Of a DNA stretch of 64,000 bases, positions 1,596 to 22,717 are shown one piece after another. The position numbers and the translations under genes were made by a program. The DNA is from Shigella phage ESh27: sequence record ON528737. The stretch is one strand, 5' to 3'. Below the pieces are notes generated by a model. The model had not been told where the DNA came from, did no database searches, and saw only the letters and a program-made list of their open reading frames with translations. Each line of letters opens with the position of its first letter. The first letter of the stretch is position 1.

Positions 1596-4500
1596 CTAAT
1601 TTAACCTGCGGTGGATTAATCGGGTCTCTAGGATTTCCCACGTTATCTAACAATCTTTCATTAACAAGCTCTCTAAATCTAGAGAACGTTGTACCTGATG
1701 CATCAAATAATGGGCTCATCGGCTTGCGTCGTTCGGACGGTAATTGTCCTTGGAAAATAGAGTTATCATTTTCTTCATTATAATTTGCAGGTAAAGGGTA
1801 TTCGATACCGGCATAAGGACCAGCATCATAAATTACTTCACCTGTAACAGGATTGAATTCTACATTACCTTGAGGGTCTAAACGAGCGACGCGGTCTGCA
1901 TATTCAGTAGGCAGTCCGGAATCCCACTTATAATTTTTATATTTATTAATAATAGTTTCAACATGTTTAAGCGTTAATCCTGTATTAATAAACATTGTTA
2001 ATAAGGTTATTGCAATAAATCCAAATCCTACCGGATGTACAAAACGTAGTACGTCAGATTTCCAACGAGAGGATGGAAGATTTGACTTTATTTTCATGAC
2101 GTAATAAGCTCTACCACGATTAAAATAATCGATAGTGTTTTGGGCAAGTTCTTTACCTTTAATACCGCGAACTATTTCACCTTCAAAATCTGCTAGTCTT
2201 TCGGCTTTTACTTCTTGACCGACTAAAAGCCTACCTAAAAGGTTATGAATAGTCACAGTCCATTGTAATTTACCTTTAGAATAGCTTCTTTCCAAATATG
2301 TAACATTACATCTACCTGTAGCGGTGTATATAGTTTGTCCAACCAAATCTTCACTTATGGAATCAGATTGAATTATGATATCATACTCTGTTCCAGCAGA
2401 TGACTCGATTTCCACTTCAACGTCTTCGTTATAAAGAACTTTAAACAAAAACTTATACGACGCTTCAGTTCCTTTAGTAGAATAAAAATCATAACTTCTA
2501 GACTCAAAGAACCTAGAAACTAAATCACGTTTCTCGGCATTCAAATAAATGTTCCGTTTATAAATTTCAGACCAAAGATATTCCCACGCGTGTTCTTCTC
2601 GTGGGTATTTATTTTTAATCAAATTCAATAAGTTATTATAATGAGTCCCGTATCCGTCAGAAAGATATTGAATATACGCTTCACAAAACGCTTCAAAGTT
2701 TGTATTATCCAACAGATAAGACTCTGGCATCATTGTAGTGAGTAATGGGCGTAAATCCGGGTCAGCTAGACCTGTCTCTTCAACAGGAACCCAAGAAGTT
2801 TCTTTTTCTTGGTTTTGTAATGAGGCGGTCAAAAATACGTTAGTGGGCTTCCAAATTATAGAAACGTTATCTCTAACACGATAACTAAAATCGTAATATG
2901 AAATTATTTCACCTGATGATTTATAAAACAACATACCAGATGCGTATTTTTTAAATCCAGTGAATTCTATATTCGGCATAACAATCTTACAATCACCATC
3001 ATTCCAGTATTCATGAACTTTACGATCAGGTGAAGTGCTAGGGTGGCTTTCCACTACCTTTGTATAAAGCAAATCAGAATAAATCACTACCGCTCTATCA
3101 GAGTTATTAATCCAAGAACGTGTGCCTGATTTTCTAGAATAACTAAAGAAAGGTTCTGCATAATACTGCATAGGAGTTGGTGAAAAAGTTTCCCAATTAC
3201 TTTCTTCGTTTGATGCGAAAATCATCATATGGTAATGTTTATCTGCGAGCCATTCTCTAGGATATTCATACTTAACTGCTCCTAAAAGTCCATACTTAGA
3301 TTGCGTTTCTGGGTCGTCAACAACATCAGATTCTAAAAATTTAAAATTACTAGAAGAGATATAAAGCTCAACACCATCAGTAGACATATTGGTGAAAGCC
3401 GGTTCTATACGACGGCGTTCTTCTTCGGTATTACCAAATATCCTTTTAAATGTTCCAGCGTCATGGTCTAAAACGTATACACCTTTATCAACGGAATCTA
3501 AAATAGGCTTTGTTCTTGGGTCGTCATTAACGTTTTCGACTTCACCAATAATAAGAGCGAATATTCTCCCACCAACAGAATCCATTTTATAACAAACTGC
3601 TTTAGGGTTGCCTGTTATTGTAAACGTCTCAGGTTCAAACAACCGTTCGGAATAGGTCGGAGATAATGGATCTGAATCAATAGGAGCGTTACTGGTTTTA
3701 ACGAAGCGAACTTTATCTCTGGCCGCAATATAAACATAGTCATCATTACAAGTAATAGCTTCTGCAATACGTGATACGTTTCCTGGTAATGACGCGTATG
3801 TACCGAAAATCTCTACATCAAAACCTAAATTTAATTGGTCCCCAATTTTAGCAAATGTTACATCTTGTGAACTGAAACGAACATCATCAGCAGACCAACG
3901 AATATCGGATGATTTACGCCCGTAAAAAATCTTATCATAGCCGAGCAAATACGTCGTATATTCTGATTGGTAATATACGGTTCGTGAAAGTGGATATCCT
4001 ACACGGTCATTAAGCAATTTAACCGCTTTCCATGTTTGGCCTTTATCATTAGACACTTTTACAATAGGTTGGAATCTTTCAAAAAGGTAAAGAATTCCTT
4101 CAGATTCCATTAGATATACTCGATTTATATCTTTACATACATCCTGGATATGCCCCTGGATTTCATGATACTGATTTTCACCAATTATAAAATTTCTAAT
4201 CGATGACACATCGGTGTATGCAGGACTAAATTGGAACGACTCGCTCATCAGTGCTGCCATGATCGTGTCATTATTAAAATCAACGTAGTTTGTATTATTT
4301 TTTGTAAATTTTTCAGAAATAAACTCGTTAGCTAATTGCATTTCAATCATATGTTGGAATGTGTAAGCGTTTATTTCAAATGTTTCAAACTCTTCGGTGT
4401 ATCTCCAATCAGACTGCTCAAATCCCTCCGCTGCTGTAGCCACACGCATCATATATGTTGTTAATGAATTTAAACCAGACTCAAAGAAATTGTTATCAGC

Positions 4501-4686
4501 TGTATATCCTAAATTAGTCCATCTATAGCTATTACGGGGAATTGCTTCCCCGTTAGCTGTTTTGGTCTCAGCTATTTCCACAAAATAGTAGAAATTAGCG
4601 CCAACCTCATCCCAGCGAATTTGAACTTGGTTTGCGGACAATTTAGATAATCTGAGACTCGTGACTGCTGGCGCTTTTACTGTCAT
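1588..4686 (-). CDS. 7: baseplate wedge initiator gp7
   Basis: 1032-aa ORF, same length as T4 gp7; position between genes 6 and 8. Confidence 0.9.
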   Translation of the reverse strand: MTVKAPAVTSLRLSKLSANQVQIRWDEVGANFYYFVEIAETKTANGEAIPRNSYRWTNLGYTADNNFFESGLNSLTTYMMRVATAAEGFEQSDWRYTEEFETFEINAYTFQHMIEMQLANEFISEKFTKNNTNYVDFNNDTIMAALMSESFQFSPAYTDVSSIRNFIIGENQYHEIQGHIQDVCKDINRVYLMESEGILYLFERFQPIVKVSNDKGQTWKAVKLLNDRVGYPLSRTVYYQSEYTTYLLGYDKIFYGRKSSDIRWSADDVRFSSQDVTFAKIGDQLNLGFDVEIFGTYASLPGNVSRIAEAITCNDDYVYIAARDKVRFVKTSNAPIDSDPLSPTYSERLFEPETFTITGNPKAVCYKMDSVGGRIFALIIGEVENVNDDPRTKPILDSVDKGVYVLDHDAGTFKRIFGNTEEERRRIEPAFTNMSTDGVELYISSSNFKFLESDVVDDPETQSKYGLLGAVKYEYPREWLADKHYHMMIFASNEESNWETFSPTPMQYYAEPFFSYSRKSGTRSWINNSDRAVVIYSDLLYTKVVESHPSTSPDRKVHEYWNDGDCKIVMPNIEFTGFKKYASGMLFYKSSGEIISYYDFSYRVRDNVSIIWKPTNVFLTASLQNQEKETSWVPVEETGLADPDLRPLLTTMMPESYLLDNTNFEAFCEAYIQYLSDGYGTHYNNLLNLIKNKYPREEHAWEYLWSEIYKRNIYLNAEKRDLVSRFFESRSYDFYSTKGTEASYKFLFKVLYNEDVEVEIESSAGTEYDIIIQSDSISEDLVGQTIYTATGRCNVTYLERSYSKGKLQWTVTIHNLLGRLLVGQEVKAERLADFEGEIVRGIKGKELAQNTIDYFNRGRAYYVMKIKSNLPSSRWKSDVLRFVHPVGFGFIAITLLTMFINTGLTLKHVETIINKYKNYKWDSGLPTEYADRVARLDPQGNVEFNPVTGEVIYDAGPYAGIEYPLPANYNEENDNSIFQGQLPSERRKPMSPLFDASGTTFSRFRELVNERLLDNVGNPRDPINPPQVKLDE

Positions 4687-6653
4687 TGTGAAATAGGCTC
4701 CAAATCTATGGTTAAATATTGTGGACGTAAGTCATTTTCAAATACAATTAATGACCCGTCTTTAGTAAAGATAACATCATCAGCTGGGTCTGAATAGAGT
4801 TCAATAGTTTGAACTTCAAACCTATCAGATGTTAAATCAATTTTAGCTATATTCCAATAAATTGAATCAGCCGGATAATTTACTTCACCTATAGAGTAAT
4901 ATTTGTTTCTTCCGTCCGTAACATGAAGTTTATTAAAATCGTCACCAGTATATGGTTGAATATAAGCATTTTCCATAACGTCGCCATCTGCAAACGGGCC
5001 AATGATAACTTGTCCAATGCCACGGTCATTTCTATCTGAACCTACAATGCGAACATCGTATTTAATGGTAGCTTCCGTTTCAGGGTCAACGCGTAAACTA
5101 TCAAATGAAAACACGTTAGATTCTAATGTTCTATCTTTAATCTGGTTATTGTATTTAATACCTGTTTCAGGTGTTTTGTAGAAGTTCTGTACCTCGCGAA
5201 CCATTTGAATAGTCGCAGATGAACCAATGATAGAAATGTCTGCGTCATCGACATACGTTAGCATTTTAGATTTTGCGAATGACGAGTTAAAAATTTCCAC
5301 GTCTTCAATATAATACCGGTCGATTTTATTAATAATTTGGCCTTCTAACCATTGTTCAGATTCCTGTAATTTGTTCAATGCATATGTAACGCGAATATTC
5401 ATTTTAATAAACAAATAATCAGGAGAAATAACAACAGGAGTTATCGTCCCTAAGTTATACTCATTAAGATAATTTTTAATATCGTCTCGTTGGACGGAAG
5501 TCAAATATAACCCAGACTTAGGTTTAGCAGCAATAAATGCGTACCCAGGCTTAGATGAATCCGTAAATGTCTGAACCGCTTGAATAATAGAACCAAATCG
5601 TTCAGAGACGAATGTGTCGTAATCGGTCGCTGTCACACATCGTTGTTGAGTTTCACGTTTAATTGTACCTAATTCACGGATACGTTCAATATCTTCAGGG
5701 TCGCCACCGCCATCCGCACCAACGAAGTCAGGGTTATTACTTGGGTTTTCATTAATTCCAATAACTGTGATATTAGCTAATGTATCAGCATAAGAGAATC
5801 CTACTGCACCATTTGCTTCAGCACCATTAGTAGAAATATATTCAATTACTATTTTAGAACCCTGGACAGGTTTAAGGCCGCCAATGTAGTTAGATGTTAA
5901 AGCACCTTCTGACGTGTTAATAGAGATTTCACCTTCACCAAAATAAAATTCAGTGTTCCCGTCAACAGTTTCTCGCATATAATAAATGGTTGAAGTAGAA
6001 CCAGCATGAACCATCGATTTGCGAGTCCAGTTAATCCATTCTGCTCCGTCAACATACAATTTAACCAAATTACGGTCAATGTTCTTATCACGAATAATGA
6101 TAGGTTTTAATTTATCAAATGTTAATTCAGTACGAACAATACGTCCCTGAGCTAACCTAAGACGTGGGAAATATTGATTATTTTTGTCTTTAACTACAAT
6201 GACGTCTTCAGTGGAAACAAAGTTATATGGATTTACAGAAGTACCTTTAGCATACGCCAGGAAACGAGTACCACGTGGAATAGTGATATAGTTTCTATTT
6301 AATGCATCCGTACATGTGAGCATAATTTCTGTTTGTGCTGCCGATTTAGATGCAGGCAGATATCCATTATCCTGAGCCGCTTGTACAACGGAACTGCGCA
6401 AGTTAGCAGTACGCATAAAGCTTTCATACACTGCACTATTACTGAACTGTTGGATATAAAGAGTATTATATGCTAAAAGGTCACACAATACGTTTAAACG
6501 CGAACCTTCAAAATCATAATCAAGAAATTCGTTCTGTCCATTGAGCCATTCGATTATATTTGTTTTAATTTCGGCAAATGTGCCCCCGATAAAAATTTCG
6601 GGAATAGCATTCGCCGTTCTGACTAACTGATAATTTACAGGAGTGTTTGCCAT
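4683..6653 (-). CDS. 6: baseplate wedge subunit gp6
   Basis: Start set at internal MANTPVNYQ (T4 gp6 N-terminus); ORF track extends 19 codons upstream. Confidence 0.88.
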   Translation of the reverse strand: MANTPVNYQLVRTANAIPEIFIGGTFAEIKTNIIEWLNGQNEFLDYDFEGSRLNVLCDLLAYNTLYIQQFSNSAVYESFMRTANLRSSVVQAAQDNGYLPASKSAAQTEIMLTCTDALNRNYITIPRGTRFLAYAKGTSVNPYNFVSTEDVIVVKDKNNQYFPRLRLAQGRIVRTELTFDKLKPIIIRDKNIDRNLVKLYVDGAEWINWTRKSMVHAGSTSTIYYMRETVDGNTEFYFGEGEISINTSEGALTSNYIGGLKPVQGSKIVIEYISTNGAEANGAVGFSYADTLANITVIGINENPSNNPDFVGADGGGDPEDIERIRELGTIKRETQQRCVTATDYDTFVSERFGSIIQAVQTFTDSSKPGYAFIAAKPKSGLYLTSVQRDDIKNYLNEYNLGTITPVVISPDYLFIKMNIRVTYALNKLQESEQWLEGQIINKIDRYYIEDVEIFNSSFAKSKMLTYVDDADISIIGSSATIQMVREVQNFYKTPETGIKYNNQIKDRTLESNVFSFDSLRVDPETEATIKYDVRIVGSDRNDRGIGQVIIGPFADGDVMENAYIQPYTGDDFNKLHVTDGRNKYYSIGEVNYPADSIYWNIAKIDLTSDRFEVQTIELYSDPADDVIFTKDGSLIVFENDLRPQYLTIDLEPISQ

Positions 6654-15504: not shown

Positions 15505-15576
15505 GGCCCTGTAGCTCAATGGGAGAGCTGTCAGCTCATAACTGATAGGTAGCTGGATCGAAACCAGCCAGGGTCA
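15505..15576 (+). tRNA. tRNA with CAT anticodon (Met, or AUA-reading Ile if lysidine-modified as in T4)
   Basis: Hand-folded cloverleaf: acceptor GGCCCTG/CAGGGTC, D stem GCTC/GAGC, anticodon loop CTCATAA, T stem GCTGG/CCAGC, then ACCA. Confidence 0.85.
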
Positions 15577-15601
15577 CCAAACAATTTATGAGAATAACAC
15601 T

Positions 15602-18575: not shown

Positions 18576-18623
18576 TTTACAAACTCTTGAGAGCAGAGTA
18601 TAATGCTCTCGTTGGATAATAAA
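18575..18623 (+). promoter_or_regulatory. early promoter cassette (TATAAT -10 inside GAGAGCA/TGCTCTC palindrome), repeat copy A
   Basis: 41 bp 18583-18623 identical to 48207-48247. Confidence 0.5.
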
Positions 18624-19247: not shown

Positions 19248-19269
19248 GGAGGACTCCGGTCCTCCTTTT
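19248..19269 (+). terminator. rho-independent terminator
   Basis: GGAGGAC-TCCG-GTCCTCC hairpin then TTTT. Confidence 0.55.
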
Positions 19270-19288: not shown

Positions 19289-19891
19289 ATGCGAAACCAA
19301 AATAATGATATTGACTCAATGTTCGAAGAGTTCCGAGATAAGGTAAATCCACCTACGTCTTTAGTTGATTCATTACGATATGTTGCAACTGGACGTAAAT
19401 GGTATTGGTCGTCTTCTTATGAGACTACTGAGAAAACGGCTAGCCATAGCAGAAAATCTTTATTAGCCCCAGGTATTATGATTCATGATATCGGAGCTAT
19501 TGCTAAACTAGTTGCAGACCATGATATTAGATTCACTGATTTCGTTGCTCCTACGTGGTCTGTTTGTTGTTTAAACACTGAATGGGAATATATCAGCGAA
19601 CGCTCTGAAGATTATTATGGTTTTAGAGATAAGCTTTTAAGGTCTAACATGTTTTATATCGATACTGAAGTTCTAGTCGATAATAAAAAATATTACTTTA
19701 CGTTAATCGTCGATTCTGAAACTATGTATGAAGGCAAGCCTTTGCTTAAAAGAGTTGATGCTTTAAGTGCTATTGATGCGCTTTATGAAACTATGGTTGT
19801 TAGTCCTAATTTCACTAACAATTTAATCCTTGAGCAATTTATTATGGAATGTAGAGAATATGTCAAAGCCAACCCTGTACATGCCAATTAA
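19289..19891 (+). CDS. hypothetical protein
   Basis: AAAGGAG then ATG at 19289. Confidence 0.6.
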   Translation: MRNQNNDIDSMFEEFRDKVNPPTSLVDSLRYVATGRKWYWSSSYETTEKTASHSRKSLLAPGIMIHDIGAIAKLVADHDIRFTDFVAPTWSVCCLNTEWEYISERSEDYYGFRDKLLRSNMFYIDTEVLVDNKKYYFTLIVDSETMYEGKPLLKRVDALSAIDALYETMVVSPNFTNNLILEQFIMECREYVKANPVHAN

Positions 19892-20255
19892 GCCCTGGGC
19901 ATACGAATACAAACGTAAATTAATCCCAAATGAAGTACTATTTGGCCCTATTTTAGCTTTAGCATTTTTAATCTTTATGATTATAGGAGCTGTTTTAGAT
20001 TCCAACAAAGTTATATCGTCTGATGCAGCGTTTTCATTAATGTTCGTCGCACCACTTATTGTACCGTTTTTATTAATGCCTATTAATTGGGCAGGATATT
20101 GGCACCAAGGCCGTCATCACAGAGCCCGATTAAGAGAATGGAAAGTTCAGTGTGCAAAAGCCCAAGCTCAGTATGATGAAGCTGTTAAAAAATATGAATA
20201 TGAAGAAGCCATGGAATTCGTTAAGGAGATAAGATGCAAAAGCCTCAACTCTTAA
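19860..20255 (+). CDS. membrane protein (start uncertain)
   Basis: Hydrophobic segments; overlaps upstream gene end; ATG at 19860 or 19881. Confidence 0.45.
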   Translation: MSKPTLYMPIKPWAYEYKRKLIPNEVLFGPILALAFLIFMIIGAVLDSNKVISSDAAFSLMFVAPLIVPFLLMPINWAGYWHQGRHHRARLREWKVQCAKAQAQYDEAVKKYEYEEAMEFVKEIRCKSLNS

Positions 20256-20593
20256 CCGTATGGCCTTCTCTTGGTGAGAACATTCTAATTTTTATTATGA
20301 GTATTGGCATGGGATTTGCCTTTGGATTAGTTGGATTTATTATTGACGGCGTTGTGTTAGGATTTATAGGGAACACTGGTGGATTCACAGACCAATGGCA
20401 GGACTTACGGTATACCCAAGCCTTTGCATCCATCGCATCGTTTTGTACTGTAGCCTATTTTTACTACGATTTTATAAACCATAACAAGAAAAATAAAAAA
20501 GTTTACGCTTCTCAAATGATTAGTTATAATGAACTTCTAGCTAGACGTGAAAATGAAACAATCGAAAACTTTATTAAGGAATGTAGAAAATGA
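20234..20593 (+). CDS. membrane protein
   Basis: 119 aa with two hydrophobic helices. Confidence 0.55.
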   Translation: MQKPQLLTVWPSLGENILIFIMSIGMGFAFGLVGFIIDGVVLGFIGNTGGFTDQWQDLRYTQAFASIASFCTVAYFYYDFINHNKKNKKVYASQMISYNELLARRENETIENFIKECRK

Positions 20594-20895
20594 GTAAGAT
20601 TATTGAAATTAAAGTACCAGAGTTTAATGATGCCAAATCCGCTTCAGATGCAATTTATAAACTTCTGAATCAAGCTGAACGTATCGAAGAAGAAGCAACA
20701 AAGATCGCAGACCAATATGCCGTATCATTTTCTGTAGGTGATTATGGTAGCGGTCGTACTTATTATCCTAAGGGTGAAATTGTATCCCAGTGGATGAAAG
20801 ATGAAATTGAAAATAATGGTGGCGATGTTAAGCGTGAAGGTAATGGTTACGTTATTACTGAAGGTGCTTGGGTTTCGTCTTCTGCGTTGTGCTAA
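20590..20895 (+). CDS. small protein, C-terminal GWVSSSxxC family, paralog A
   Basis: Ends ...ITEGAWVSSSALC; AAGGAA-type RBS. Confidence 0.6.
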   Translation: MSKIIEIKVPEFNDAKSASDAIYKLLNQAERIEEEATKIADQYAVSFSVGDYGSGRTYYPKGEIVSQWMKDEIENNGGDVKREGNGYVITEGAWVSSSALC

Positions 20896-20904
20896 GGAAT
20901 CATT

Positions 20905-21177
20905 ATGTCTAAAGAACAAACCGAACTGGCTGAAGCCGTAGCAAAAATCTATGCAGCTATTGAGGCTGCCAAAGAAATTGCTAATAAACAAAACACAACA
21001 TTCGACTTGTATCCAGCTTATGGCATGGGTGGAACCTATCATTCACCAGGACATCTTAAAGCCGATCTTGAACGTTGTACAAAAAACGGCTATGCTGAAT
21101 GGGCTGACGTTTACCAATATGACTACAACCTGAGCCTTGAAGATGGCGGTTGGGTTGCATCTTCTCACACTTGTTAA
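20905..21177 (+). CDS. small protein, C-terminal GWVSSSxxC family, paralog B
   Basis: Ends ...EDGGWVASSHTC. Confidence 0.6.
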   Translation: MSKEQTELAEAVAKIYAAIEAAKEIANKQNTTFDLYPAYGMGGTYHSPGHLKADLERCTKNGYAEWADVYQYDYNLSLEDGGWVASSHTC

Positions 21178-21186
21178 GGAAATCAT

Positions 21187-21384
21187 ATGTCTCGCGAATT
21201 AGATTGTGCTGTACGTACGGCAGTAGCTGCTCTGGAAAACCTGTTCCAGATTGCAACCGAAGAGCGTGAAGAAGTTACATTGTGGATTGAAGATAACGCA
21301 GGTCTGAATCTCCAGGACGCGATCTCATTATCCAATAATAGCATTACTGTTCAAGGCTGGGTATCATCTAGTTATTCTTGCTAA
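21187..21384 (+). CDS. small protein, C-terminal GWVSSSxxC family, paralog C
   Basis: Ends ...TVQGWVSSSYSC. Confidence 0.6.
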   Translation: MSRELDCAVRTAVAALENLFQIATEEREEVTLWIEDNAGLNLQDAISLSNNSITVQGWVSSSYSC

Positions 21385-21388
21385 AACA

Positions 21389-21425
21389 GTTTACAACAAG
21401 ATAGGGCTATGTTATAGTAGTCCTA
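21389..21425 (+). promoter_or_regulatory. early promoter cassette (GTTTAC / TATAGT / TAGTCCTA arm)
   Basis: Same core as the 13675 cassette with one arm mismatch. Confidence 0.5.
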
Positions 21426-21446: not shown

Positions 21447-21686
21447 ATGATTTATTACGAAAGTATCGGAACCGAAGTAGTTGCTAAAACTATTACTCGT
21501 GAAAGGTTTGCAAAGATATTCGATATGCGTTATAAAAAATCTGAACACAAAGGCATCCGATTCGAAGATGCGCACTGTACAATTTGTCCTTATAATGAAG
21601 ACATAAACGGTACAATCGTTCCGTTGGTAGAGGCTTCACATGATGACCTCTGGGATGAATATAATATCGCATGTCGTGAAATTTAA
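21447..21686 (+). CDS. hypothetical protein
   Basis: GGAG then ATG at 21447. Confidence 0.55.
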   Translation: MIYYESIGTEVVAKTITRERFAKIFDMRYKKSEHKGIRFEDAHCTICPYNEDINGTIVPLVEASHDDLWDEYNIACREI

Positions 21687-21711: not shown

Positions 21712-22668
21712 ATGATGTTAGTTATTGGTTCTCGTGCACTTCACTATCACGGCCTTATTGATTCTAGCGCTATCAAAAATAGTGATTGGGACTTTATTGC
21801 GGACCAAGGTTCTTGGAATGCATTCAAAAATCAAATGATGGGTGTATATGTTCACCAAGATAACCCTGATGTCCAAGTTTTCAAATGCTTCCATAATGGA
21901 CGCGAAACTCATTTTGAAGCATATATTGTTCCGGCAATCACTAATGTCCGTGAATTAGTCGGTGAACTCACTCCTGAAGATTTCACGTCTTCTTATGACC
22001 TTTTAAAATATGCCAAGAAAAATTTGACTAAAGACCGTTTGAACGGGTTTTACTGGGCAACTCCTGAGATGTGCCTTGCAATTAAGATGTCCCATCGTTT
22101 CAAGAAAAATAATCCATTCTTTTTAAAGACTATGAACCATATTCAGTATCTTCGTGGTAAAGGTGTTACACTGAACGATGAACTTACTGAAATTATGCTG
22201 AAACGCCAGAAAGAAACCTTGAACTATGCCCACCCAGTTCTTGACACTTCTAAAAGCGCATTCTTTAAAGATGACATCTATACATATGACCATGATACTA
22301 TTCACGAAGCCATTGCACTAACAGACCGTCCAGCGTATACATTTTATATGAAAGATGGTTCTGAAGTCATGACCTCACGCGAGAAGTTCGAATCATTACC
22401 AGAAATGGTCAAATTGGCCGGTGTATACGAAGAATCATGTGTACTAGCATTAGAACGTTCTCAGATTCCTAATGACTTTAAAATTAACCCTGAAGCCAGT
22501 TTCATGATGGCATTAGAAAAAGTCTGTACAAGCATCACCTCGGGTTGGTTCCGTGAGTATGCCTGGGAAAACTACAGCAAAGTAGTAAGTATGTACCAAA
22601 GCTTAGGACATGATGATTACGTCAAACGTTTCAAACAAAATTTCCATATGGTAAAACCTTTCAAATAA
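21712..22668 (+). CDS. hypothetical protein, possible nucleotidyltransferase fold
   Basis: 318 aa; N-terminal IGSRAL...SDWDF resembles a loosened GS...DxD motif; assignment weak. Confidence 0.6.
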   Translation: MMLVIGSRALHYHGLIDSSAIKNSDWDFIADQGSWNAFKNQMMGVYVHQDNPDVQVFKCFHNGRETHFEAYIVPAITNVRELVGELTPEDFTSSYDLLKYAKKNLTKDRLNGFYWATPEMCLAIKMSHRFKKNNPFFLKTMNHIQYLRGKGVTLNDELTEIMLKRQKETLNYAHPVLDTSKSAFFKDDIYTYDHDTIHEAIALTDRPAYTFYMKDGSEVMTSREKFESLPEMVKLAGVYEESCVLALERSQIPNDFKINPEASFMMALEKVCTSITSGWFREYAWENYSKVVSMYQSLGHDDYVKRFKQNFHMVKPFK

Positions 22669-22680
22669 CTTCACAAAACT

Positions 22681-22717
22681 GTTTACACAATTATAGGACT
22701 ATGTTATAGTAGTCCTA
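22681..22717 (+). promoter_or_regulatory. early promoter cassette with perfect palindrome TAGGACTA-N8-TAGTCCTA
   Basis: GTTTAC 22681-22686, TATAGT 22705-22710. Confidence 0.5.

Follow-up and report, generated by a model that had tools for sequence, protein, structure and literature searches.

Small phage proteins with a shared C-terminal cysteine tail form a two-component module with a MenT-like nucleotidyltransferase

Minimal nucleotidyltransferases of the Pol-beta type can nucleotidylylate a hydroxyl group of a small partner encoded next to them, as in the type VII HEPN/MNT (HepT/MntA) systems, where MNT enzymes AMPylate the small HEPN protein, and in the GlnD/PII pair, where GlnD uridylylates PII. 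Variable protein bodies joined to a conserved C-terminal docking box are known from the poxvirus ankyrin/PRANC F-box-like proteins. The MenT toxins add nucleotides to tRNA acceptor ends, and MenT1 is blocked by MenA1, a protein of 68 amino acids (aa) which is encoded upstream of it and blocks its active sites (PMC10435456). RlaP and other phage Pol-beta-type nucleotidyltransferases are encoded near RNA ligase and kinase genes and are predicted to restore RNA 3' ends (PMC7824862). Here we describe three consecutive small genes in a 64,000-nucleotide stretch of Shigella phage ESh27 (sequence record ON528737; hereafter the window), whose products end in the same cysteine-containing tail and which are followed on the same strand, 328 bp downstream, by the gene of a MenT-like nucleotidyltransferase. 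Literature searches found no description of this module, and in the library searched neither the two domains DUF7275 and DUF7277 nor the PHROG numbers and RB69 ORF names concerned are mentioned; a paper on RB69 hypermodification concerns other genes.

A preliminary description of the window had reported three consecutive open reading frames (ORFs) of 101, 90 and 65 aa with a shared cysteine tail, and our coordinates and endings agree with it exactly (Table 1). The resemblance is real and highly non-random. A six-frame scan of the window with the pattern W[VILAM][SATG]S.{1,4}C* found the tail at these three stop codons only, and rough arithmetic with typical residue frequencies gives about 5e-9 as the probability that any one ORF ends in W-V-[SA]-S-S-x-x-C. 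An AAGGAA Shine-Dalgarno sequence lies 6–8 nt upstream of each ORF, and the ATG of ORF1 overlaps the stop codon of the e.3 homologue (ATGA). No DNA-level repeat was found between the three genes, and the codons of the serine region of the tail differ, being TCG/TCT/TCT in ORF1, GCA/TCT/TCT in ORF2 and TCA/TCT/AGT in ORF3. Because of these differences, which include a TCT/AGT switch, we conclude that the shared tail is kept by selection on the protein, and rule out recent duplication or gene conversion as its source.

The N-termini had been described as unrelated. For the body of ORF3 no relationship to the other two was detectable, but ORF1 and ORF2 are homologous over their full length, both matching phrog_899 (E = 1e-22 and 2e-18, respectively) and having in common F..(G)xYGxGxTYxxPG; ORF2 matches the hidden Markov model (HMM) of the small-protein family at E = 8.6e-21. 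The ORF3 protein does not combine a full-length phrog_899 match with the YGxGxTY motif and aligns through its tail only, and its hhalign probability against the ORF1/ORF2 family is 82% with the tail and 3.8% without it. ORF3 orthologues in other T4-like contigs retain the tail. Pfam, NCBIfam and PADLOC gave no meaningful match for the three ORFs, and single-sequence and profile searches of the PDB with the small proteins found no relative, designed helical bundles matching the amphipathic helix only. The capsid targeting sequence of T4-type internal proteins, MKTYQEFIxE, is absent from the three N-termini (MSKIIEIK, MSKEQTEL and MSRELDCA).

The conserved C-terminal cysteine tail extends far beyond the paralogues in which it was first noticed. 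A profile search of 1.84e9 cluster representatives (50% identity) returned 99 matches at E ≤ 1e-3, about 90 of which are proteins of 65–135 aa aligned to their last residue; nearly all 99 end in W-x-[S/A/P]-S-S-x-x-C and have a central YG(M/S)GGTYxPxG. These matches and the members from phage loci make up a pool of 295 unique proteins, with a length of 52–175 aa (median 88 aa) and a median net charge of -8. Part of the pool was picked by the tail pattern, so its counts lean towards the motif; matches found by the HMM only show the same tail. The terminal cysteine is present in 282 of the 295 proteins, with a spacing from the tryptophan of seven in 235 and of five in 39, and the tryptophan and the serine at W+3 occur in every member scored, part of the set having been chosen by a pattern requiring both. 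The tail at the stop codon takes the form W-x-[S/A/P]-S-S-x-x-C or a shorter one, W-x-[S/P]-S-[S/N]-C. A second cysteine is present in many members, and some carry extra internal copies of W-x-S-S-x-C in acidic linkers.

Most members still cluster together when the last ten residues are removed, the main body family (phrog_899) consisting of an N-terminal helix and the YG(M/S)GGTYxPxG hairpin. No homology to this family was detectable for the ORF3 type or for at least three further kinds of body (52, 139–142 and 144 aa), and the tail is common to at least four or five body types without detectable mutual homology. Because it is found on unrelated bodies and in internal copies within acidic linkers, the tail behaves as a portable linear motif, and it is essentially unchanged whether the recorded host of the phage is Escherichia, Pseudomonas, Aeromonas, Klebsiella, Enterobacter or another. 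Judged by their sequences, the three window proteins belong to a superfamily of small acidic proteins that is restricted to phages and defined by this C-terminal tail.

The preliminary description suggested a shared processing, modification or binding function. It pointed the right way but missed the nucleotidyltransferase gene, which starts 328 bp after the stop codon of the array. With the 318-aa enzyme as anchor, 80 loci with 6-kb flanks were retrieved from IMG/VR and all their ORFs searched with the small-family HMM. Matches occurred in 70 loci: 132 matching ORFs precede the enzyme gene on its own strand, one follows it and the opposite strand has none, the three classes containing comparable numbers of ORFs. 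Tail-motif scanning and manual reading gave 74 of the 80 loci with one to six tail genes, which lie on the same strand within about 3 kb upstream and are separated from the enzyme gene by a median of about 0.9 kb. In the reverse direction, a DNA pattern for YGMGGTYYP yielded 13 small-family loci, and the enzyme gene lies directly downstream in all ten that are long enough.

Across 26 enzyme lineages (defined at 60% identity) only the tail family and the nucleotidyltransferase are conserved as neighbours; there is no third gene, and the flanking genes are all different. A tail array followed by a homologue of the 318-aa enzyme is found in lineages as unrelated as the Straboviridae, Pseudomonas phage PN09 (Otagovirus), E. 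coli phage phiWec179 (Phapecoctavirus) and jumbo phages, the T4-like carriers including RB69-like and JS98-like phages and T4-types of Klebsiella, Enterobacter and Aeromonas; Dhakavirus has five tail genes at the same site. T4 itself, for which the preliminary description knew of no characterised counterpart, has none at the syntenic site: in the 8-kb T4 stretch compared, e.3 and e.2 abut and the whole block is absent. Among 185,579 bacterial and archaeal species genomes the enzyme was found in five contigs, all from metagenome bins and four of them with tail genes upstream, and a bacterial origin or prophage location was dropped on these grounds. The linkage tests from both anchors, the neighbour survey and the bacterial genomes thus establish a module which is phage-specific and has two components, and the gene linkage points to a two-part system of tail proteins and nucleotidyltransferase. 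Such near-obligate linkage to one enzyme gene fits the function suggested earlier, although the kind of modification is something we infer.

The same survey bears on two further explanations. The AlphaFold2 (AF2) monomer of the tail protein is a confident fold (predicted local distance difference test, pLDDT, 84) in which A-W-V-S forms part of a beta strand of a small sheet. This, and the second cysteine of many members, would suit a tail that is purely structural or metal-binding, a terminal strand with a cysteine ligand or a dimerising disulfide, the synteny with the nucleotidyltransferase then reflecting inheritance as one block. We consider this very unlikely, as the same tail occurs on bodies of very different sizes without detectable homology, and as synteny over 26 nucleotidyltransferase lineages, in unrelated phage families and with all-different flanks, excludes simple block inheritance.

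The second explanation is a maturation like that of ribosomally synthesised and post-translationally modified peptides (RiPPs), in which S-x-x-C-COOH would be converted into a thioether or aminovinyl-cysteine (AviCys) type of ring, or cleaved off as a small molecule, with the body as scaffold or leader. A C-terminal S-x-x-C is indeed the pattern of AviCys and lanthionine rings, scaffold peptides with conserved C-terminal residues are used in the mycofactocin and 3-thiaglutamate pathways, and tandem precursor arrays are typical of RiPP loci. Nevertheless we regard this maturation as highly improbable. Against it are the lack of any further conserved enzyme in the neighbourhood, the 26 lineages having only the nucleotidyltransferase and no conserved dehydratase or cyclase (LanB/C/M/KC/L), LanD-type or flavin decarboxylase, radical S-adenosylmethionine enzyme or protease, and the variable serine-to-cysteine spacing, S-S-x-x-C and S-S-C giving different ring sizes. 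We know of no Pol-beta-type nucleotidyltransferase that acts as a RiPP enzyme. Furthermore, the proteins are 52–175 aa long with confident predicted folds, and it is the would-be core that is conserved and the "leader" that varies, the reverse of a RiPP precursor.

The protein collection contains 2,212 homologues of the enzyme itself. In the PDB, neither single-sequence nor profile searches found a solved structure related to it by sequence. Its best structural match is the MenT1 toxin (score 10.1), followed by ANT(2'') (8.6), TglT/MenT3 (8.6), MenT4 (7.8) and LnuA (7.2), and a putative H. pylori nucleotidyltransferase is also among the matches; these are small two-lobed Pol-beta-type nucleotidyltransferases. 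Residues G6, S7, D25, D27 and E69 are invariant, as are K125, H128, H194, D195, H198 and R249 of the helical lobe, and the G-S, D-x-D and E catalytic motifs are intact, in agreement with the G-[GS], [DE]-x-[DE] and third acidic motif that accompany a MenT-type fold. Because the catalytic residues are invariant, the enzyme is probably active. Four further residues, Y172, H174, C272 and R281, are kept in every tail-linked nucleotidyltransferase. C243 was considered as a partner of the tail cysteine and dropped, as it varies (C/Y/M/T/L) among the tail-linked enzymes whereas C272 is invariant.

Our preferred reading is that tail and enzyme are directly coupled. We hold this to be an evenly balanced proposition, divided roughly equally between the tail as substrate and the tail as regulator; the contact, the modification and the biological target are what we infer. 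The flexible tail would dock in the cleft between the nucleotidyltransferase lobe and the helical DUF7275 lobe, with the tryptophan as anchor, the hydroxyl of the invariant serine at the place of the acceptor hydroxyl, and the thiol or carboxylate of the terminal cysteine touching either the metal site or the clade-specific patch of Y172, H174, C272 and R281. The tail might then be nucleotidylylated, the small proteins being substrates which the enzyme activates or regulates, with MNT and GlnD as precedents. Alternatively, it might serve as a pseudosubstrate gating an enzyme that has an RNA or tRNA 3' end as its true substrate, for which the block of MenT1 by MenA1 is the precedent. The variable bodies would give each small protein its own target. 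Five paralogue types persist across T4-like contigs with nucleotidyltransferases 65–75% identical to that of the window, and this persistence of types, some with unrelated bodies, argues for separate targets more than for dosage or redundant inhibitors. The tail proteins are probably early-expressed effectors of host takeover or counter-defence, a role which fits the promoter-like sites and the position in the variable tRNA-to-e region. In a more specific version, which we offer as speculative, the nucleotidyltransferase would attach a nucleotide or short nucleotide chain to the invariant serine or terminal cysteine, and the effectors would be protein–nucleotide conjugates, for example tRNA 3'-end mimics, which jam host tRNA-targeting immunity.

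The likeness to MenT1 also raises the possibility of inhibition alone, as by an antitoxin. The nucleotidyltransferase would be a toxic or tightly dosed MenT-like modifier of tRNA 3' ends, and the small proteins, without targets of their own and unmodified, would bind it and hold it off. MenT1 is the best structural match, the order of small gene first and nucleotidyltransferase second is that of menA1-menT1, where the 68-aa MenA1 blocks the active sites (PMC10435456), and the small proteins are acidic (pI 4.0–4.8). We think this unlikely, if well worth weighing. One inhibitor would be enough, but between three and six divergent types of paralogue, in part with unrelated bodies, are kept across genera; MenA1 binds by an N-terminal helix and hydrophobic pockets and not by a C-terminal tail (PMC10435456); and the small proteins have no sequence or fold similarity to MenA1 or AbiEi. 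Furthermore, the module belongs to lytic phages rather than to bacterial chromosomes, and the nucleotidyltransferase of the window, with a pI of 6.5, is not basic overall.

Distant DUF7275 enzymes (25–30% identity) without tail genes nearby were found in Streptomyces phage Wakanda, Gordonia phage Norvs, Vibrio phage KVP40 and roseophage DSS3_PM1, where they adjoin polynucleotide kinase, RNA ligase or tRNA gene clusters. Y172, H174, C272 and R281 are all missing in the three most distant of these homologues (Wakanda, Norvs and KVP40), and that of DSS3_PM1 keeps C272 and R281 and lacks Y172 and H174. Because of the repair and tRNA neighbours and the MenT fold, analogy suggests that the ancestral activity of the enzyme concerns RNA or tRNA 3' ends. 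The Wakanda, Norvs and KVP40 enzymes each also adjoin an ORF of 97–99 aa, rich in Asp, Tyr, Trp and Gly and without a Pfam match, which might represent a different partner family for the tail-less branch.

These neighbourhoods would suit a counter-defence cassette whose parts share a pathway without touching each other. The tail would bind a host factor, for example as a decoy for toxins or nucleases which grip tRNA acceptor ends, and the nucleotidyltransferase would separately repair or remodel RNA or tRNA 3' ends. In an Erwinia jumbo phage one tail protein is encoded directly after rnl and pnk, the module of the window lies about 5 kb from a tRNA gene, and acidic proteins with an aromatic C-terminal tail recall nucleic-acid mimics. 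This explanation seems to us unlikely, because the tail is near-identical across phages of many hosts, which would demand equal invariance of a host target, because the linkage to one nucleotidyltransferase subclade with extra invariant residues is tighter than that of loosely cooperating genes, and because no third gene is conserved.

A number of observations weigh against direct coupling of tail and enzyme. In the AF2 monomer the W-V of the tail packs on the body as a beta strand, so that the tryptophan may be a structural rather than a docking residue. Because a few members end in CN, CS or CW, with one residue after the cysteine, the free cysteine carboxylate is not absolutely required. 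A nucleotidyltransferase of the clade type occurs without tail genes in two arrangements (L028, and one that is present twice, as L048/L049), and the member of Erwinia jumbo phage Hallingskeid lies beside pnk and rnl with no nucleotidyltransferase gene within 2.5 kb. The frameshift in the RB69 copy of the tail protein 1 gene suggests that single members are dispensable. More generally, the gene linkage could result from a shared pathway without contact.

Some details of these exceptional loci are recorded here. The Hallingskeid member (2486–2719 of the extracted locus) is a protein of 77 aa ending in GAWISSSQMC, encoded directly downstream of RNA ligase and polynucleotide kinase genes, an arrangement which hints at a tie between tail proteins and RNA repair. 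In L028, a T4-like IMG/VR contig, an upstream ORF (3176–3484) starts with MKTYQEFINEA, the capsid-targeting sequence of T4 internal proteins, and the expected position of the array is an ORF-free gap (4515–5576). The RB69 orthologue of tail protein 1 (NC_004928, 4001–4307 of the extracted locus) is divided by the frameshift into ORF139c and ORF138c and covered by tblastn with two pieces; the frameshift stems from a sequencing error or marks a natural pseudogene, and suggests that the laboratory strain can do without this paralogue.

In large lytic phages, small early genes without known function run into the hundreds, and few of them offer a testable handle. The module described here has several: a tail defined by its sequence, an enzyme which is the only conserved partner and has a recognisable catalytic fold, and a distribution among phages with a clear phylogenetic pattern. 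Should the tail serve as a substrate, the module would be a new post-translational modification system, with a portable tag that may be likened to a sortase or lipobox signal. As a pseudosubstrate, the tail would represent a novel mode of gating for MenT-type enzymes, known elsewhere as bacterial toxins that act on tRNA. Either way, the result provides annotation for three PHROG families and two Pfam DUFs together, and indicates a likely player in the contest between phage and host over tRNA.

The window is from an RB69-like Mosigvirus, and the region is 97–98% identical to many Mosigvirus genomes. The array of three tail genes sits between T4-like e.3 and e.2 homologues, the order in RB69 being e.3, ORF139c/138c, ORF137c, ORF136c, ORF135c, ORF134c ... 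e.2, nudE, e; the RB69 copies of the tail genes are annotated without a "similar to T4" remark. The phrog_3723 ORF between the array and the nucleotidyltransferase gene occurs in T4-like versions only, is absent from the Otagovirus and Phapecoctavirus versions and is not among the families common to several lineages. Its membership of the module is doubtful, and it may be a lineage-specific accessory. Two promoter-like sites accompany the array (Table 1); both are consensus matches only, and the region contains just as many such sites as shuffling would lead one to expect. The second could provide a separate start for the nucleotidyltransferase operon.

Table 1 Positions of the tail genes, the enzyme gene and associated features. 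Coordinates are those of the window unless a locus is named.
Feature	Position	Strand	Remarks
Tail protein 1 (ORF1)	20590..20895	+	101 aa, pI 4.6; RB69 ORF139c/138c equivalent; phrog_899; ends GAWVSSSALC
Tail motif WVSSSALC of protein 1	20869..20892	+	
Tail protein 2 (ORF2)	20905..21177	+	90 aa, pI 4.8; RB69 ORF137c equivalent; phrog_899; ends GGWVASSHTC
Tail motif WVASSHTC of protein 2	21151..21174	+	
Tail protein 3 (ORF3)	21187..21384	+	65 aa, pI 4.05; RB69 ORF136c equivalent; phrog_4882; different body; ends QGWVSSSYSC
Tail motif WVSSSYSC of protein 3	21358..21381	+	
Intervening small ORF, 3 Cys	21447..21686 (ORF from 21435; probable start 21447)	+	RB69 ORF135c equivalent; phrog_3723; contains HCTICPYNEDINGT
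Partner enzyme, 318-aa nucleotidyltransferase	21712..22668	+	DUF7277 + DUF7275; phrog_2141; RB69 ORF134c equivalent
Sigma-70/T4-early-like promoter match TTTACG-17-TATAAT	20502..20530	+	Inside e.3 3' end, about 60 nt upstream of ORF1; consensus match only
Early-promoter-like site GTTTACA-17-TATAGT, extended TG	21390..21418	+	Just past the array; consensus match only
97–99 aa ORFs beside tail-less enzymes	L093 4594-4893; L094 4600-4893; L095 3360-3656		

Outside the module, further T4-early-type promoter matches (TTTACA-17-TATAAT and TATAGT) at window positions 18576–18604 and 22682–22710 flank the block. These too are consensus matches only, and would suggest that early transcription proceeds in several short units. 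The e.5-like gene is preceded, at 19248–19265, by a GC hairpin that is strong and bidirectional and has a T tract (GGAGGACTCCGGTCCTCC TTTT). The tRNA gene of the variable tRNA-to-e region, a tRNA-Met with a CAT anticodon (15505–15579), is the only one which ARAGORN found in the 64 kb; in the annotations of close relatives the corresponding place has two tRNAs (Ile2/Arg in F27) or three (Met/Arg/Lys in phage 55).

Several annotations of relatives were set aside. The label "sulfurtransferase", used in two of them, falls on an e.4-like predicted membrane protein (window 19830–20255) for which Pfam gives no support, the sole match being weak and to Glam1; the label is probably spurious. In phage vB_Eco_F27 this protein is at 4661–5056 of the extracted locus. 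In vB_EcoM_ESCO10 (OM386655.1, 2600–6100 of the extracted locus) a tail protein is called "inhibitor of prohead protease", a 93-aa ORF "helicase" and a 65-aa ORF "group I intron endonuclease"; the first two labels were dropped, as the product names look displaced, and none of the three should be propagated.

Among described systems, RlaP has a genomic context that is common to the distant DUF7275 members, but it has not been described with tail-tagged partners, and the enzyme of the window matches no Pfam nucleotidyltransferase family other than DUF7275/DUF7277. ANT(2'')-Ia and LnuA act on antibiotics, whereas nothing in this module suggests an antibiotic substrate, and the helical lobe (DUF7275) of our enzyme is much larger and has its own invariant His/Asp/Cys set. 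The likeness to MenAT, such as MenAT1 of M. tuberculosis, and to AbiE is at the level of the fold. By sequence the enzyme falls outside AbiEii/DUF1814, as Pfam at E ≤ 0.1 gives DUF7275 and DUF7277 only, the PDB profile search returned no MenT and PADLOC had no match. Its partners, moreover, have no similarity to the antitoxin MenA1, nor to MenA3 or AbiEi, which consist of a winged helix-turn-helix plus a kinase-like domain. In addition, the module differs from both systems in that each enzyme is accompanied by several divergent partners with a C-terminal tail as their defining feature, and in belonging to lytic phages.

In the HEPN/MNT and GlnD/PII systems the acceptor is a tyrosine inside the HEPN or PII fold, whereas the candidate acceptor here is a serine in a terminal tail; neither a HEPN or PII signature in Pfam nor a structural HEPN match was found for the small proteins. 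The module may be described as a nucleotidyltransferase with small-protein partners, with a real chance of a new protein-tagging chemistry. The poxvirus PRANC proteins, to which there is no sequence or structural relation, provide an analogy only, that of tandem paralogues with divergent bodies which a short C-terminal element would plug into one enzyme, in this case a nucleotidyltransferase encoded by the virus itself and not a ubiquitin ligase of the host.

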